A stretch of DNA of 64,000 bases from a virus. The position numbers and the translations under genes are program-made. The stretch lies in the IMG/VR virus record IMGVR_UViG_3300027763_000034, positions 32,001 to 96,000 of that record. One strand, written 5' to 3'. A model generated the notes under the pieces. That model did no database searches and was not told the origin of the DNA. It was given only the letters and a program-made list of their open reading frames with translations. Shown here in pieces: positions 30,228 through 58,485 of the stretch (position 1 is the stretch's first letter; every line of letters begins with the position of its first letter).

Positions 30228-30482
30228 ATCTTAATTGTAGCATTTGTATTTTAGTCGACTGCTATTTCATATTTCTAAAAATGTTAATATATTTTTATTA
30301 TGTATGATACATACCTAAAAACAAAACGGACATTTGGGATAGACCGCACATATTAAGCGTGAATGTGTCCTATCTCACAGGATAATTCTAAGATTTATTC
30401 CGACACGCCGAGAGATAACTTGATAAATGTCAGTCCCCTAGTGTAGAGTTATCTTATAACAACAAACGAAAGGAGTCACACA

Positions 30483-33013
30483 ATGACTCAACTTACAGAA
30501 ACACTATACAGCACTATTGTGCACGACTTCCATAATGGTGGGGTCAAGTCCTCTTATGGACTCAATGCCTATACACGCAAGGCTCTATTGCGTGACCTAC
30601 TCTCTAGCAAGGCTTGCTATTGCATAGAGTGCGTGTGTGAGGTAACTCACACCGCATAAGGCTCACGCTACGGCGTGTCGCCTTGATAATGTCAGCCCAC
30701 TAGGCTACAATACTTACTATAACTACTAACGAAAAGGATAGAAAATAAAATGAAGATAACTTACTCACTATGGGACGGCGCTCAACTACTAGGCGTGGAT
30801 TTCACCGCTAATAGCGCAGACGAAATGAATAAGGTCGTAGCAGACCTAATGAAAGTTTCTCGTAATGTCGTAGCACATATGCGAAAGGTAGAGCAGAACT
30901 AATGTCATACGCATACTCATACCAAACTAACTCAATAGATAAATATAACTCTATTCAATCAGATGTCGCAGACGCATACGCATACCTTGATGAAGAAGAA
31001 ACAGAGCAACCCCCTGTTGATGATTTTGATGATGTAGATGATGAAGAATTGGCGCAAGTATTCGCACTAAGTTGGGATAACTAATGAACTTAGAACTAAA
31101 CGGATATGGTCTATGCCTAGATAGCGATTGGTTCTATGTCGCACTAGATTGGAAACTAATAACACTAACCGCCCTAGTGGTAATCGCCTATAAGATTTAT
31201 AAGAGAAAGAAGAATAAGTAATGACTACTAATCGCCTACTAACTACCCTAGTGCAACTGGGTATTGGTATCCCCGCCCTGCTTATGCTACGCCTTGCTAT
31301 AAAAGACTTCTTAGAGAATGGACTAGATTAATGAAATCGGAATTAGAGAGAGATTTAGAAATCAAAGAAAGTTTTATTGATTTACTAAATGATGTTTATC
31401 CTACTGTAAAAATCGGTTACTCTACATTCACACCCGCCGAGATTTTGGAGTGTTGCGATCCTATCGCTTTTTCTATCGGACTAATTGAGCACCAAGATTA
31501 TTTAGAAGAATTAGAAGAAGAATAACGGCGTGTCGGCTTGACAATGTCAAGCTGGCCCGCAAAGGCACGGGGTCGGGCGTGTCGTTACGGGCTTTGCATA
31601 GAACCCCTAGAATTTTGTGATTTTTATCACATAGGTTGAGCGTCTCAGTATTTGGATTTACTGGCTAGTAATTATCTTATGTCAGTGGGTTCGTGTATAA
31701 TGTCTACTATAACAACAACGAAAGAAGGTCAATTCATGAACCTAGATGAATTCAAGGCGCATGTTATCGCCACCCGTCAAGCAAGCAAGGCAGAAGCCTT
31801 GTCAGTGCTATCTGCTACAATGTCAGTATCAACAACAACGAAAGAAGGAAAGTAATGTCAGCAAATGTTTACAATGTAACCGATTTACTAATCGGAAAAA
31901 CTTATCGCTCAAATTCCGTAACTGGAGAAATTATCTCAGCGGAAATTCACCCGCAAGCAATTTGGTATGAAGGCGCAGAAGCGTATCGTGTCCAAATTAG
32001 AAAAAATACTGGCGGTTATACTTATCGCAGTTTGGCGGTAAATAAATGAACACAATGATTGACGAAAATGAATTTTATACAATTCACGAACCAACTTTTA
32101 TGTGTTGTGATGAAAGCCAATTTCGTTATGTGTGTAAAGCACACGGCGAAAGTATGGGTTGCTACTTTTGCGAATTTGACTACTCTAATGATTGCGAGGA
32201 ACAACACTAATGGGATACATTGAAATTTTCCGAATGGATAACGAAGGTGCTGGCTGGGTAGATTTATCCGAAGCAACACCCGATGAATTATTCAACATTG
32301 AATTAGGTCTAGTCAATGAAGGTGCGTTTGACGGCTCTTTATTTATGAATGGGGAAAACGAATGAGCGAAATTGCTGGAATGTGGATTTGCTCTAATTGC
32401 GATACTCTCGCCATTGTGTCAGTGGAAACTGATACAATACTTGTAACACAATGTAAATGCGTAACTAACGAAAGGGAAACTAATGAATAAATACACTTTT
32501 GGCGTTTGGCTAGACATAGACGCAGAGGATGAAAATCAAGCGTTATCTTTATTTGATGAGGTTGTAAAGAAAAATCCTTTTGTTTCAGACTCTTATTGTT
32601 TTGAATGGAAAGAGGTTGCTAATGTATAAAATAACTCTAGCCTATGACGGAAATGCCCCACACTGGCAGGGCGATTACTATGATGAAATGGAAGCGTGGT
32701 CAGCGTTTTTCAAATTCACCGACTGGGGATTTGCTGATGAATTCTCAACTGTAAATATTTACACTCCCGAATTGAAATGCTACACAAAAAACTTTTATCG
32801 TAGCGGAATGGTGGTAGCAAAATGATGACACGCAAAGACTATGTGGCAACGGCAGAAATTCTAAAGTTTGCTAGCGACAAAACGCACCCTGCTTTATTTT
32901 CTAAAATCGTAAATGATTTTGCTGAAATGTTTGCGAAAGATAATGAGCGATTTGATGTAAAACGATTTCACGAAGCGAGTGGATACAATGTTCCTAAACT
33001 CACTTCAAGATAA
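30483..33013 (+). CDS. Array of small (40-70 aa) early-type hypothetical ORFs, e.g. 30483-30659, 30750-30902, 30902-31084, 31331-31525, 31855-32049, 32822-33013
   Basis: Tightly coupled ORFs (TAATG overlaps) behind repeated promoters and RBS. Confidence 0.6.
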
Positions 33014-33975: not shown

Positions 33976-34307
33976 TGTATGACGTTATCGGATCCATTCT
34001 TGGAATTGGATTAATTGCATTCTTGTGCTCACCAATTGTGCTAGCAGTGTACATGTGGAATGGTGCAAAATTTGATGATGATAATGATGGAATAGAAGAT
34101 TTACCTAATCGTTGGTAACGGCGTGTCGGCTTGACAAAGTCAAGCTGGCCCGCAATATTGTGGGGGGTTATCCACAGGCTTACGGGAGTTATCCACAACC
34201 CCTGGAATTGTGAGTATTATCACAAAAGCTGCGACACGCCCATAATGGATTAGGTAATGTCAGTGGCAAATGCTATAATACTCTTATCCAACAACGAAAG
34301 GTAACAA

Positions 34308-34777: not shown

Positions 34778-35217
34778 CATCACACAATAACTTTCTCAAA
34801 TAATGAGATAGGGCTAGACTAATGTCAGACCCCAATGCTACAATACTACCTAACAAAGAAAAGAGGCAAAAATGACAATAGAAGGAAAACTCTATCAGGT
34901 CGGCGATTTATTCACCAGCCTAAAGTCAAAAAAGACAGGTGTTATCAAAGAGATACACCCACAGGCATCTGGCTCGGTGCGTGTGCTACTGGAACTACCT
35001 AGCAAGGAAACTCGCTGGACTTCAGTATCAGCCAAGACACTACTTGGCTAATAAGACGGAGGCATACACCATAATCGGGTGCTAAGCCACGAAACAGGGA
35101 CAGTTTAGGAGAGTATCTAGTCCAATGTCGTAAGTAAGAACTCTCCCCCCTTCGGGGGAAATGTCAGACCCCCCTGCTATACTATCCATAACAACAACCA
35201 ACGAAAGGTAATACAAA

Positions 35218-36002: not shown

Positions 36003-36179
36003 TCTCCAGCTCGGCCCCCGCTTTTGGGGGGTTATCCACAGGTTTACGAGTGCTTGTGGATAACCCTGAAAGTTTGTGAGAATGATCACACCGCACAATT
36101 CGGACAAATGACTAACTAACCTAGACAATGTCAGTGGCAGATGTTATACTTATGACTAATCAAACGAAAGGAAATAAAA

Positions 36180-37237: not shown

Positions 37238-37311
37238 GGTCTGTTAGCTCAGTTGGTTAGAGCGCTACCCTGTCACGGTAGAGGTCGACGGTTCAAGTCC
37301 GTTACAGATCG
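37238..37311 (+). tRNA. tRNA-Asp (GTC)
   Basis: Canonical cloverleaf; CTACC-CTGTCAC-GGTAG; GGTTCAAGTCC. Confidence 0.92.
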
Positions 37312-37415
37312 CAAAGCGCCCCCAAAGGTAAGGGATCAAAAAGTGTGTTACGAATCACAAAAAAAATCCCTGAAAGCTATTGTAAATGTCAGTGGGCTCG
37401 TGTATAATTCTCATC

Positions 37416-38072
37416 ATGACCAACGAACTAGTATCAACTAAGTATACATTTGCCTGTGACCCAGACGAATGCGATGTATTAATAGAACTAACATCATCTG
37501 ACGGATTTGGATTCCCGTCGGGTGTGACTGAAATCACTTGTCCTTGTGGCCGTAAGCCAGTCTTATTGTCAGTGGTCAATGCTACAATTGCTCCTATAAC
37601 CCAAACGAAAGAGGAAAAAATGGAACCAACAACAACACCAATCCCTGAGTCATATAACTCTAATCTATTGGTAACCTACAAAGTTATCCGTGGATTCTCA
37701 GATGCAGAATATGCAACTGATAAAGTTACAAGTCTTGAATGGGACTTACACAATGGACGTCAGGCACAGAAGCACAATGCAGTTCTCCAAGGCAAGATTG
37801 ATTCGGCTAAAGAAATTATCTGCGAGGCATATGCAGACTCACAAGACCAAGATACCTTGCGTGAAATTGCTGAAGCGCTTGGCATTGAACTAATCAAGGA
37901 AGTTGAATGGTCTGCATCTATTGAAGTTAGCGGAACATATTCTTTCAACATTCTTGAGAATGATTATGATATGGACCTTGAATCAGAAATTACAGATGCA
38001 ATCTTTGCTGATTCACATCACGGTAACATTGAAATCAATGACCAAGAAGTATGTAATGTGCGTGAGAACTAA
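37416..38072 (+). CDS. Hypothetical protein with in-frame internal start at 37620
   Basis: Leaderless start after promoter 37387; second promoter 37567 plus RBS 37604 inside the ORF. Confidence 0.6.
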   Translation: MTNELVSTKYTFACDPDECDVLIELTSSDGFGFPSGVTEITCPCGRKPVLLSVVNATIAPITQTKEEKMEPTTTPIPESYNSNLLVTYKVIRGFSDAEYATDKVTSLEWDLHNGRQAQKHNAVLQGKIDSAKEIICEAYADSQDQDTLREIAEALGIELIKEVEWSASIEVSGTYSFNILENDYDMDLESEITDAIFADSHHGNIEINDQEVCNVREN

Positions 38073-38988
38073 TGTACTTTGAGTTGACCGCTCCCGATAG
38101 GCTATCTCTTGAGATGGCTTATTGGGATGCACAAATCACAGGGCTCGACCCTGAATTTATGCCGCCATTGACATTCAACATTGGAACTGGTAGTATTGAG
38201 AAAGTTAGTCGCATTCGTGATAAGTATAATTTAAAAGAATCATACTGGTCAGACAGAGAAGCGACAGGATACAGGGAGAAGTAATGTCAGATTACAAAGA
38301 TGGATTTCAAGACGGGTATAAGTTTGCTCGTGAAGAACTAATGGAAAAGTTAGCAGAGATTGATATTGCTGACATTGACTCTTGGATCCTTGACCGTCTT
38401 TCAGAAATGATTGAGGGTGGCAACCTGTGATGGCTGAATGGCTTAAGTGTGATCAGTGTGCAGCTCAGGCAATGTGGGAAGCAAAGAAAGATGAGATGTC
38501 TCTTTATTTTTGTGGACATCATAAAAACAAACAGGGCGAGTCACTTGTGGACTGGGCCCATGAAATGGTACAATTACTAAACTACGAGCAAGAACAACAA
38601 CTAGCAAAGGCGGAATAAAATGGGCGACAGAGCAAACTTTGGATTCAGAGATTCCAAGGAAAATATTGTATTTTTATATGGACATTGGGCAGGGCACCGA
38701 ATGCTAGAGAATTTAGCGGACGCCGTGCAGATTGCACATCCACGTTGGAATGATGAAGCATATGCTACACGTATTGCTATCAGCCAAATGATTGGTGATG
38801 AGTGGGCTAGCGAAACAGGCTGGGGCATTAGTGTTAATCAATTGGCAGATAATGAACACAAGGTCCCAATTATTGATTGGAAAAATAAAACGTTTACGTT
38901 AATGGAAGAAGACCTGCAGACTGTAGTATTTAGTACAACCTTGGATGCATTTGTGGCCAAGTATTGTAGTCAACTAAGTATGGTATAA
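38072..38988 (+). CDS. Run of small hypothetical ORFs (38072-38284, 38427-38618, 38620-38988)
   Basis: Coupled ORFs; 38620 has MGDRAN...LYGHWAG, a phage-type motif. Confidence 0.6.
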
Positions 38989-38994
38989 TTAATC

Positions 38995-39145
38995 TAGGAC
39001 CTTGGTCCTGGTTTTAATACAGAAATGAAGTGGTGCGTCTAACTAGTCTACGGGCCAGGCGCTAAGTAAAGCGGTTTATTTCTTTCGTTGGAAATCAGCA
39101 GCCATATTCATTAACCCCCCAGCTTGATCTGGGGGGTATTTTTTT
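38995..39145 (+). ncRNA. Candidate ~150-nt sRNA antisense to the early-gene RBS
   Basis: TGGTATAAT at 38981-38989, 5' hairpin, TTCTTTCGTTG seed at 39080-39090, terminator 39114-39145. Confidence 0.55.
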
Positions 39146-39308
39146 GCCCACAAAAGAAATGAGGGTATCATATGTGTTTTACGGATGTCAAGTCAAAACC
39201 CTGAAAATCCCAAGCTTTGAGATCATGTGGCATGAATCACATGCATTTGCTCTTCCATATGTCAGTGGTCTGATATATAATTAGAACATATCAACGAAAG
39301 GATATAAA

Positions 39309-40082
39309 ATGCCAAATTGGTGTTACAACACATTAACTATTCAAGGACCTAAGTCTGAGGTAGATATGATTAAAGATAGATTGAATAAACCTTTTACATT
39401 AGCCCAAGAAACATTTGGTATGGGTGATATATCTACTATGGGATTTCCTACTAAGATTGAACAGGTATCTTATTCTAATCCCGTTTTTTCTTTTCATAAC
39501 ATCCACTCATATAAAGATGACGGAATTACTGATGAGGAATATGCCTGCCAGCCTACACGACTAGGAACAGACACTAGTGCTCCTGATTGGTTTGCTAAAG
39601 AAGTTGCACATGCTAAAACTCAGAAGGATTGGTATTCATGGAATACATCTAATTGGGGAACCAAATGGGATGTTGCTGTCCGTGATGAAGATGAATATCC
39701 TGAAACAGAATTACTTGAATATAAGTCAGAAGGTGATGACAACTGGGTTGTATATAAATATGAAACTGCTTGGTCACCTGCTGTAACTATCTTAACTAAA
39801 CTAAGTAATCTTGTTCCGAACTGCCTGCTCACATTAGAGTATGAAGAAGAAACAGGCTGGGGTGGGGAATATGAGATTGTCCGTGGTGAAGTAAAAGAAT
39901 TGGCTGAATGGGAAAACCGTTGCTATGCTTGCCAGTCTTTTGATACATTGAGTTATTGTGAAGATGACTGTGGAGAATTCTGCTCAGAATGTAATCAAGG
40001 CTCTTGGCAGGATGAAAAGGCAATGGCAGAATGTCAGACCCATAGTGTATTATTAGAGCCTAAAGAAAAGGTGGAGGCATAA
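39309..40082 (+). CDS. DUF1281/YubB-like ferredoxin-fold protein
   Basis: MPNWCYN.L, WY.WN..NWGTKWD, TAWSP. Confidence 0.7.
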   Translation: MPNWCYNTLTIQGPKSEVDMIKDRLNKPFTLAQETFGMGDISTMGFPTKIEQVSYSNPVFSFHNIHSYKDDGITDEEYACQPTRLGTDTSAPDWFAKEVAHAKTQKDWYSWNTSNWGTKWDVAVRDEDEYPETELLEYKSEGDDNWVVYKYETAWSPAVTILTKLSNLVPNCLLTLEYEEETGWGGEYEIVRGEVKELAEWENRCYACQSFDTLSYCEDDCGEFCSECNQGSWQDEKAMAECQTHSVLLEPKEKVEA

Positions 40083-41598
40083 TGGCAAGTTTCTTAGAAG
40101 ATGTAAATCAAATGGTAATTGACGCTGTATATCAAGAGATAGCAGAACAATTACTAGATGACTGGATTAATAATAATCTAAATGAAGGACAGTATTATGC
40201 AGATAAACAATTTGCACAAATGTCAGGAGATAAATTTATCTTTGAGCAATTTAATAAGTTCTATGAACTTAAAGAAGGAGACGATGATTATATGGAGTAT
40301 GACTTATGCTAGGTTATACTGAATCTGATCTAAATGAAATGATTAATGCTGTACATGACGCAAAGCTTTTCTATCTTAGGACCCCGTCCGATTTAATGGA
40401 TAAGTCTTTGCTAACTAATAGTTTGCTAAAGACAAATGATTTCTTGCAAGGACTATGGGCGGAGGGTTACTTTGACCACACTAACTAAATCTTCTAAGTT
40501 CCTAGAATATATGAAGATACATCTAATTAGTCTTAACCAGGACTTAGAAATGAATCCTGAATCTATCAATGTAATTGATATTCCAGGACAAATATATGCA
40601 ACCGAACATTTGTTGTCAGTGGCTACTGATATAATGAATGAAAACGAGAGGATATAAAATGAATTCAGAAGACATTGGGCTCCCGCCCCACTTGCAACGT
40701 TTAGTTAATGCAGGTGTTAATGGATTAGATATAATGCATGGCGAACTAAAGAATCTAATGTTGATTGCCGAAGAGCAATTGGCTTGGGCTCAGGCAATTG
40801 AAGATGAAACCGAAGAGGCAATGGATTCAATGGCACGTACAGAGGCGGAGGGACGACTAGATACTCTAGTTGAACTATATAAACTAACATATGATTTATC
40901 ATTTGCTATAGGAGAAAAGGAAGGGCAAAAAGTATGACATACGAGCCAAGTCTAGAAATCCTGGAAATGGAATACTCTTGCTCACCTGGAGGAGTAGATA
41001 CATTTGAGGTGTATGATAAAACAGATATACCTTTATCTGTACCAATATATGAGACTGAATCTTTGACGGATGCCGTGCTCTACTGTTATAATTTAGGGAA
41101 AGACTTTACTGTCAAGACATTAGCGGAATGGAATGAAAGGGAGTTAGCATATGAAGCCAGCCGATAAAGATAAACTAAACGAATGTTTAAAGATTCTAGA
41201 CACCACCGACCTTGGCTTGTCATTAGTATGGCTGTGGACATGGTCCACAATTAACAACATTTTTGAGGATGAGACCTACAAGCAGAACTGCACCATAGAT
41301 GACATGTGGGACCACCTCTGCGAGGCCGTGGAGGCTGGTATGGGCTTCTCCCTAGAGTACGGGGCGGAACAACATCAGGAAGACGTCCTTGAATGGATGA
41401 TGAATCGTGAGTACATTGTCGACACAATGTTTGAAGAAGAGGAAGAAGACGAAGATGAGGATGAGTGATCAATACATCGATGAGATCCTTAACAGGGCCC
41501 AACAGCTTTTGTGGGGCGGATCAGAAACAGAGAACATCGAAGCACACAACCTTATATCTAATCTAATTAAAGAAAGAGTAGAACAAGTTTCTAACTGA
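40082..41598 (+). CDS. Run of small acidic hypothetical ORFs (40082, 40306, 40436, 40638, 40934, 41151, 41461)
   Basis: Overlapping co-directional ORFs. Confidence 0.55.
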
Positions 41599-58184: not shown

Positions 58185-58485
58185 GCTTTTCCTTTATACG
58201 TCTCCAGACATCTTTTGTCTTATGGGCATTTCTTAGTTTATCATGGGAGCCAGAGTTTAAATAAACCCCTCCCCAGACACCATAATCACTATTGGCAACC
58301 CCATTATCATAGCATAGCTTTATGACTGGGCATGACAGGCATGCCTCATCAATACTTTTTGCTATGTTAACATCAGCCTCATATTTATCAAAAAACAGAT
58401 TAGTATCCATTCCAAGGCACAACGCAAGCTTATACCAATCTACATTATCTTCATCTACGTTTAAACTATTTAAAATATTTGACAT
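58174..58485 (-). CDS. whiB: WhiB family Fe-S transcription factor
   Basis: W..LALC...FF...C..CPV...C...GVWGG; probable start MSNILNS. Confidence 0.85.
   Translation of the reverse strand: MSNILNSLNVDEDNVDWYKLALCLGMDTNLFFDKYEADVNIAKSIDEACLSCPVIKLCYDNGVANSDYGVWGGVYLNSGSHDKLRNAHKTKDVWRRIKEKHVY

Follow-up and report, generated by a model that had tools for sequence, protein, structure and literature searches.

The window analyzed here comprises 64,000 nucleotides and corresponds to bases 32001–96000 of a 116,155-bp IMG/VR phage record with a GC content of ∼38%. It contains a WhiB-family gene on the minus strand (58264–58437 of the window, 42 bits), a marker of phages of actinobacteria (PMC10914622). 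We found no tyrosine or serine recombinase, integrase, or resolvase anywhere in the genome, which suggests that the phage is probably virulent; its host is probably an actinobacterium. An array of small-gene cassettes on the plus strand (30.4–40.7 kb) forms the early block. The early genes considered below as targets code mostly for small proteins outside any Pfam or PHROG family, the exceptions being a DUF932 and a DUF1281_C protein. A tRNA-Asp(GTC) gene is located between two cassettes of the array (37238–37312), and four further tRNA genes are found elsewhere in the window.

Seventeen promoters of the form TGTCRG-N10-TAnnnT are present on the plus strand of the genome and none on its minus strand, and 16 of them lie in the early block. 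They have no −35 box and match the PafBC (RecA-NDp) architecture, by which alone they are assigned to this class. In the published PafBC consensus, tGTCgg(N10)tA(N3)T, a −26 element replaces the −35 box (PMC8635444). The leader 8-mer AACGAAAG is present at 9 of the 17 PafBC-type promoters genome-wide, and at 11 of the 17 when two wobble-compatible variants are included; the other promoters of this type (∼40%) have different leaders or are leaderless.

An initial annotation had placed a promoter, a hairpin, a stretch complementary to these leaders, and a terminator at 38981–39145, and all four elements are found there on the plus strand. The extended −10 promoter TGGTATAAT (38981–38989) overlaps the TAA stop of ORF 38620–38988, and no TGTCRG box is found upstream of it. 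Its TGnTATAAT motif is retained in 30/30 close homologues and also in divergent groups despite a changed overlapping codon (ATGGTA, ATGATA, ATGCTA). As the −10 box stays fixed while the codon that it overlaps changes, TGnTATAAT is conserved beyond the coding requirement. A 5′ terminal hairpin, P0 (38994–39011, helix 1), starts at the predicted transcription start (∼38996). Stem P1 closes a predicted three-way junction, with its 5′ strand (39024–39034) pairing to a 3′ strand at 39101–39112 that is supported by covariation (helices 3–5). The junction holds the P2/P2b arm (39035–39062, helices 6–7), in which GCGTCT pairs with AGGCGC and an inner GTC/GGC stem carries a UACG tetraloop, the A-rich junction strand J2/3 UAAGUAAA (39063–39070; consensus YUAARUAAAGC across groups), and the P3 hairpin (39071–39099, helices 8–10), whose stem (39071–39077 with 39092–39099) presents a 14-nt loop (39078–39091). 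In this apical loop lies the seed CTTTCGTT (39082–39089), the reverse complement of the leader block, within the longer complementary stretch TTCTTTCGTTG (39080–39090). The unit ends with an intrinsic terminator (39114–39145), composed of a 9-bp G+C-rich stem (39114–39137) followed by T7 (39139–39145).

The locus had been described as ORF-free, and in practice it is. Its only frames, one of 5 codons from an ATG and one of 31 aa on the minus strand (39076–39171), are not conserved, since indels and compensatory RNA changes separate the relatives at these positions. Judged by sequence, the conserved promoter, the covarying terminator, and the lack of a conserved frame define an independent transcription unit; some subfamilies have no clear promoter or terminator. 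Past the terminator, a second conserved non-coding block (39146–39200; GCCC[AG]CAAAAG...GAGGGTAnCAT...TTTACGnnGTCAA) is kept in nearly all relatives.

Relatives were fetched from IMG/VR via the flanking proteins, the complete contigs being ∼104–116 kb in length. By blastn we located 30 distinct close homologues (76–99% identity), and more divergent copies at the same syntenic spot were found with a profile and then with a covariance model, which amounts to 86 distinct sRNA sequences in all. A search of the locus against Rfam gave no match at the gathering score and, up to an E value of 10, only sub-threshold, terminator-driven matches, and blastn of the locus against 50,697 GenBank phage records returned no match, so far placing the family only in IMG/VR contigs. 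The family is abundant among these metagenome-derived phage contigs, and its apparent hosts appear to be uncultured low-GC actinobacteria.

The fold that we propose (5′ hairpin, closing stem P1, arms P2 and P3, and terminator) was tested on 52 of the 86 distinct sequences. In this alignment, which was fitted to the covariance model and hence favors structure, 93.4% of the cells are paired compared with 72.5% in shuffles, 31 of the 41 pairs show changes in both partners, and covariation scores 0.45 versus 0.14 in shuffles (0/500 reach it) and ≤0.09 when the partners are slid by 1–3 columns. Compensatory changes are also plain in an independent MAFFT alignment of the close homologues, where GCGTCT/AGGCGC is changed to GCATCT/AGGTGC and GCGGCT/AGTCGC, for example, and GGTTT/AAATC to GGATCT/AGATCC. 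All six pairs of P0 change on both sides and 94% of its cells are paired, with the hairpin missing in one subfamily (L006 type). P1 shows compensatory changes such as AATGAA/TTCATT to ATGATA/TATCAT, also evident in the MAFFT alignment, together with an invariant GGT that pairs with GCC. The cells of P2/P2b are 100% paired, with exchanges between GC, AU, CG, UG, and GU. The P3 stem has been replaced between lineages (GGTTT/AAATC, GGATCT/AGATCC, AGAGTTC/GAACCTCT, ATCGG/CCGAT, GCAG/CTGC, CGTC/GACG). In the terminator (helix 11), 8/8 pairs change on both sides, and whole terminator stems are swapped between relatives independently of the RNA body. G-U pairs are abundant, which identifies the plus strand as the RNA strand. 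Covariation supports the proposed three-way-junction fold.

An RNAalifold consensus of the close homologues pairs AGCGG with UCGUU, which would bury the seed. We rejected this fold because GCGG is replaced in divergent copies by GCAG, GCAT, or GCGT, in step with the opposite (3′) strand of P3, and the seed does not change. The single-sequence minimum free energy structure pairs part of the seed with AGAAAUGAAG, an arrangement that has no covariation support. Burial of the seed in a stem, which the initial annotation had named as evidence against its own proposal, is not what we find; the seed is located in the apical loop of a covarying hairpin.

In three contigs (L027:4381–4521, L033:5407–5564, and L073:5207–5348) the sRNA is found downstream, not upstream, of the DUF1281_C gene. 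These relocated copies are again positioned at a cassette boundary, just ahead of a PafBC-type promoter, and their presence at other boundaries fits an action in trans. One subfamily (L006, L013, L026, L036, L044, L056, L063, L066, L070, and L116; ∼2700–2860 in each) lacks the 5′ hairpin and the intrinsic terminator and has instead a TTGACA box after the RNA body; some of its members have no clear −10 box. Copies of this type may arise when the upstream mRNA is processed. L022 (2700–2880) keeps the scaffold, that is, the promoter, P2 with a compensatory change, GCAGCC, and the terminator, with ACCUUUC as the apical loop of P2, and has lost P3 and the seed. A stand-alone, G+C-rich 11-bp hairpin is located 2.4 kb downstream in the same contig (5340–5400), and its loop shows UUCCCUUUCGUUG (CUUUCGUU). 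Our search for further copies of this stand-alone hairpin returned only matches in the same contig and unrelated ones. From this single case, the seed hairpin looks like a module, and the persistence of a scaffold without P3 and seed hints at a possible separate function for the scaffold.

The position of the element between two cassettes, where its terminator must also end upstream transcripts, raises the question of whether it acts in cis, as the 3′UTR or terminator of the upstream cassette or as a riboswitch or attenuator gating read-through into the gene starting at 39309. With its conserved junction bases, the three-way junction is reminiscent of an aptamer, and the subfamilies without a clear promoter of their own would also be in line with such a function. 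However, a separate promoter and leader serve the downstream gene ∼115 nt past the terminator, the freely exchanged terminator stems leave no conserved anti-terminator partner, TGnTATAAT is under more than coding constraint, and the element relocates to other boundaries. Alternative pairing between a sensor and the terminator, and control of the next gene, as would be expected of a riboswitch or attenuator, are not seen. We consider a cis-acting element very unlikely and regard the locus as probably encoding a separately promoted RNA.

Only two blocks are at least 96% identical across the 52 sequences, GGTGC and CTTTCGTT, the latter being the longest. The seed is kept in 85 of the 86 distinct copies. 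Its sole variant, CTTTCGAT (L114:2647–2816, identical to L200), occurs with leaders that still read AACGAAAG, and could be a sequencing or population variant. Energy models give the seed bases an unpaired probability of 0.67, compared with 0.40 for the rest of the RNA. They do pair the two outer seed bases, and the median probability that all 8 bases are free is 0.024, a low value because these models usually close the loop to 6–7 nt. The loop contains CUUUC, which it shares with the 3′ end of actinobacterial 16S rRNA. Beyond CUUUC the seed adds GUU, reading a phage-specific AAC.

On the target side, the window contains nine copies of AACGAAAG on the plus strand, all of them 7–11 nt ahead of an AUG, and the complement once, at 39082–39089, whereas shuffles yield 1.26 matches on both strands together and 0/100 reach 10. 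The rest of the 116-kb genome holds only two more copies, both of them unrelated minus-strand matches. The first leader copy (30465–30472) is located 10 nt before the AUG of gene 30483–30659, with a predicted duplex energy of −12.7 kcal/mol. The next two, at 31717–31724 (AUG 31736) and 31837–31844 (AUG 31855), have 11-nt matches, CAACGAAAGAA in the former, and reach −15.4 kcal/mol each. Further copies precede the AUGs at 32483 (32467–32474), 34308 (34293–34300), 35218 (35200–35207), 36180 (36163–36170; DUF932 protein), and 37620 (37604–37611). The last copy (39293–39300) lies before AUG 39309 of the DUF1281_C gene, and its 8-mer is predicted to be 90% unpaired. All nine correspond to sites listed in the initial annotation, three of whose coordinates include the preceding C; the variant that it reported at 30728 reads AACGAAAA (30728–30735, plus strand), and we add a further variant, AACGAGAG, at 40643–40650 on the same strand, in which an A-to-G change still pairs with U as a wobble. 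The natural leader variants AGCGAAAG and AACGAGAG are both A-to-G changes that keep pairing via G-U.

The leader block is positioned 7–14 nt from the AUG and 11–16 nt, once ∼43 nt, from the −10 box. Being constant in its distance to the AUG and variable in that to the −10 box, it belongs to translation initiation and not to the promoter. Where leaders of phages that have the RNA contain the Shine-Dalgarno core GAAAG, the three bases directly ahead of it (−3 to −1) are mostly A (96%), A (89%), and C (90%), and the flanks are variable on both sides. The conserved leader block is thus exactly AACGAAAG, with the same length and boundaries as the invariant block of the RNA. The leaders are CA-rich, very short, and mostly unstructured. 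Seed and leaders would pair over 8–12 bp; the predicted duplexes have 10–12 bp and energies of −10.6 to −15.4 kcal/mol, and by duplex energy all nine leaders rank within the top ∼25 of 46,450 genome windows. When we compared own and swapped duplex energies for loop flanks and leader sets in 18 groups, own leaders had no consistent advantage. Covariation of seed and leader among relatives had been put forward as a check on the pairing: both partners are conserved, indeed invariant, and no compensatory seed-leader change is seen, the one seed variant being unmatched.

The copy at 37604 lies in a region (37387–38072) with two promoters. The promoter at 37387 has its predicted start ∼7 nt past its −10 box, right at ATG 37416, and a leaderless mRNA is predicted from it for a 218-aa ORF. 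A second promoter (37567) and the AACGAAAG leader lie within the same frame, ahead of the in-frame ATG 37620. Two nested isoforms starting at 37416 and 37620 are possible, of which the sRNA would address the shorter one only.

We also compared the occurrence of the RNA and of the leader motif between genomes. Each of ten complete genomes with the RNA has 7–12 same-strand leader copies, mostly clustered in the early region, and a single opposite-strand copy, which is the seed. The RNA is absent from the complete relatives G004 and G005, and the large fragments G002 and G003 likewise gave no match; G016 (the L057 contig) ends before the expected sRNA site. G004 and G005 keep the promoter class and have the 8-mer in only 2/11 and 1/10 leaders, respectively. 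Where the RNA is lacking, GAAAG is preceded mostly by A instead of C, and the leaders of the complete relatives without it mostly read AAAGAAAG; G004 retains a few AACGAAAG leaders. Overall, 287 of 523 leaders carry the 8-mer in the presence of the RNA, compared with 4 of 30 in its absence (Fisher 6e-6, a value that overstates significance because the sequences are related and not phylogenetically independent).

The same 8 bp being present at all sites on the DNA, the 8-mer could in principle be a site for a double-strand-binding protein, with the copy in the sRNA gene as one more, inverted site. Against this, the RNA copy is always framed by a covarying hairpin that keeps the 8-mer in its loop, and the leader copies track the AUG, not the promoter. 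The seed copy, moreover, is single and in strictly opposite orientation in ten genomes. We regard a DNA site as highly improbable.

It is somewhat easier to imagine, and still unlikely, that the structured RNA serves another purpose, for instance as a ligand of a phage or host protein or as a regulator of host mRNAs, and that its complementarity to the leaders is incidental. The pairing model assigns no role to the conserved single strands GGUGC, YUAARUAAAGC, and AGCAGCC, the scaffold persists in the L022 lineage although the seed hairpin is gone, and host mRNAs with AACGAAAGG at their ribosome-binding sites would be candidate partners. Yet a chance 8-mer complement within 150 nt has a probability of only ∼0.0015, as estimated from the shuffle rate, the seed is one of just two blocks that do not vary and starts and ends exactly where the leader block does, and genomes with the RNA are also those with C at leader position −1. 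Covariation, the invariant seed, matching boundaries, and co-occurrence strongly support the initial proposal of a separately promoted, structured sRNA with a loop antisense to a shared leader and Shine-Dalgarno region. From these sequence comparisons we consider it likely that the loop pairs with the leaders.

Whether such pairing would be inhibitory is a separate matter. The RNA might pair with the leaders without being a repressor and protect or stabilize the mRNAs, act as a threshold or noise filter, or set apart a sensitive “immediate” subset. The pairing evidence, namely covariation, the invariant seed, and the matching leader block, is the same for these roles. The sRNA promoter, an extended −10 that looks constitutive, contains no delay device, and the ∼40% of same-class promoters without the motif suggest differential control over a global shut-off. 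On the other hand, masking of the Shine-Dalgarno sequence normally represses initiation in known systems. The predicted duplex covers the Shine-Dalgarno sequence 7–14 nt before the AUG, and masking of this kind blocks initiation elsewhere, as for P1 c4 (PMC12197685). In addition, the CA-rich, mostly unstructured leaders offer no inhibitory fold that pairing could relieve. A role other than repression thus seems improbable to us, and we lean toward the view that the pairing represses translation. On balance, we favor a trans-acting sRNA of ∼150 nt that would mask the Shine-Dalgarno region of the early leaders.

In the mechanism that we propose, host SigA-type RNA polymerase probably transcribes the sRNA from its own extended −10 promoter. 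The transcript would begin with a protective 5′ hairpin, fold into the three-way junction, and end at the intrinsic terminator, which would also close the upstream early cassette. The apical loop of P3 would present CUUUCGUU and pair with AACGAAAG in the leaders of most PafBC-type early cassettes. The duplex would cover the 5′ half of the Shine-Dalgarno sequence (GAAAGG) and three upstream bases that would confer specificity over host mRNAs; as the GUU of the loop reads the phage-specific AAC, phage leaders should be favored over ordinary host ribosome-binding sites. By competing with the 3′ end of 16S rRNA, the sRNA would lower translation of the first cistron in each targeted cassette, and mRNA decay or lost translational coupling may follow. 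We infer that the RNA is expressed, that it pairs in vivo, that its effect is negative, and that its role is early shut-off rather than tuning.

The scope of this control appears narrower than first assumed. The initial annotation had the RNA shutting off the whole early regulon, which does not agree with the ∼40% of same-class promoters that have other leaders or none; with the motif at only ∼60% of the PafBC-type promoters, the RNA would split the array and not silence all of it. Because its promoter looks constitutive, a timed off switch would need more, for example an RNA stability that outlasts promoter activity. Two further points count against the model: one RNA gene faces nine or more promoters, and the pairing is short. 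To our knowledge, no RNA chaperone is known in actinobacteria, and the host phylum is without Hfq. We only tentatively propose, and with some doubt, a regulon-wide, RNA-based early-to-middle switch in a virulent actinophage whose early promoters would imitate the PafBC DNA-damage promoters of the host. In this switch one RNA, its loop in part a mimic of the 16S anti-Shine-Dalgarno sequence, would simultaneously silence a defined subset of about ten early operons via the 8-nt address AACGAAAG. The comparative data predict that cassettes with the motif are silenced and that those without it escape.

If true, this would be a regulon-wide RNA early-to-middle switch of a kind not known to have been described for any lytic phage. 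Timing in lytic phages is usually ascribed to proteins, among them sigma factors, modifiers of RNA polymerase, and repressors of translation such as T4 RegA; a single RNA that recognizes the same leader on many operons would offer a compact alternative to protein control. It would also provide a clear case of sRNA regulation in the Hfq-less actinobacteria, and the RNA family may shape infections of a major bacterioplankton group. An 8-nt address beside the Shine-Dalgarno sequence, read by a scaffolded loop, is a simple and portable design for synthetic control in actinobacteria.

RNAs of this general kind, phage antisense RNAs and sRNAs with anti-Shine-Dalgarno loops, are already known, and what is not described in the literature that we searched is the combination of a virulent actinophage, an unrelated scaffold, and one 8-nt address on about ten separately promoted early cassettes. 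The best sub-threshold Rfam match is mmgR/suhB (RF00519; 24.7 bits compared with a gathering score of 41, mostly from the terminator), in which a terminator likewise follows a hairpin with a CU-rich loop. It is an alphaproteobacterial family of which our RNA is not a member. In actinobacteria (6C/B11) and Firmicutes (RoxS/RsaE), pyrimidine-rich loops carried by stable hairpins pair with the purine-rich ribosome-binding sites of many mRNAs independently of Hfq. These RNAs are chromosomal and aim C-rich loops at G-rich sites; Rfam has models for them, and none of these models matches our RNA. The seed reported here, by contrast, is U-rich, mimics the 16S 3′ end in part, and is extended by GUU. 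Phages and prophages also carry small regulatory RNAs that act by base pairing, among them VpdS (VP882), PreS (lambda), DicF, and AgvB (PMC12197685). In contrast to our RNA, they are Hfq-dependent, come from Proteobacteria, and act mainly on host mRNAs or sRNAs and not on a leader that early genes of the phage itself have in common. Our RNA finds its closest analogue in the c4 RNA of P1/P7, a structured phage RNA whose loop pairs in trans at the ribosome-binding site of a phage mRNA and blocks its translation (PMC12197685). The resemblance is functional only, in that the loop of our RNA is complementary to ribosome-binding sites of the phage's own mRNAs; there is no homology in sequence or structure, and C4 is not among the Rfam matches up to an E value of 10. 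c4 is an immunity factor of temperate phages that is cut from the same operon transcript that it controls and has one target operon, whereas the phage described here lacks an integrase, and its RNA has a dedicated promoter and faces a leader shared by 9–12 separate cassettes.
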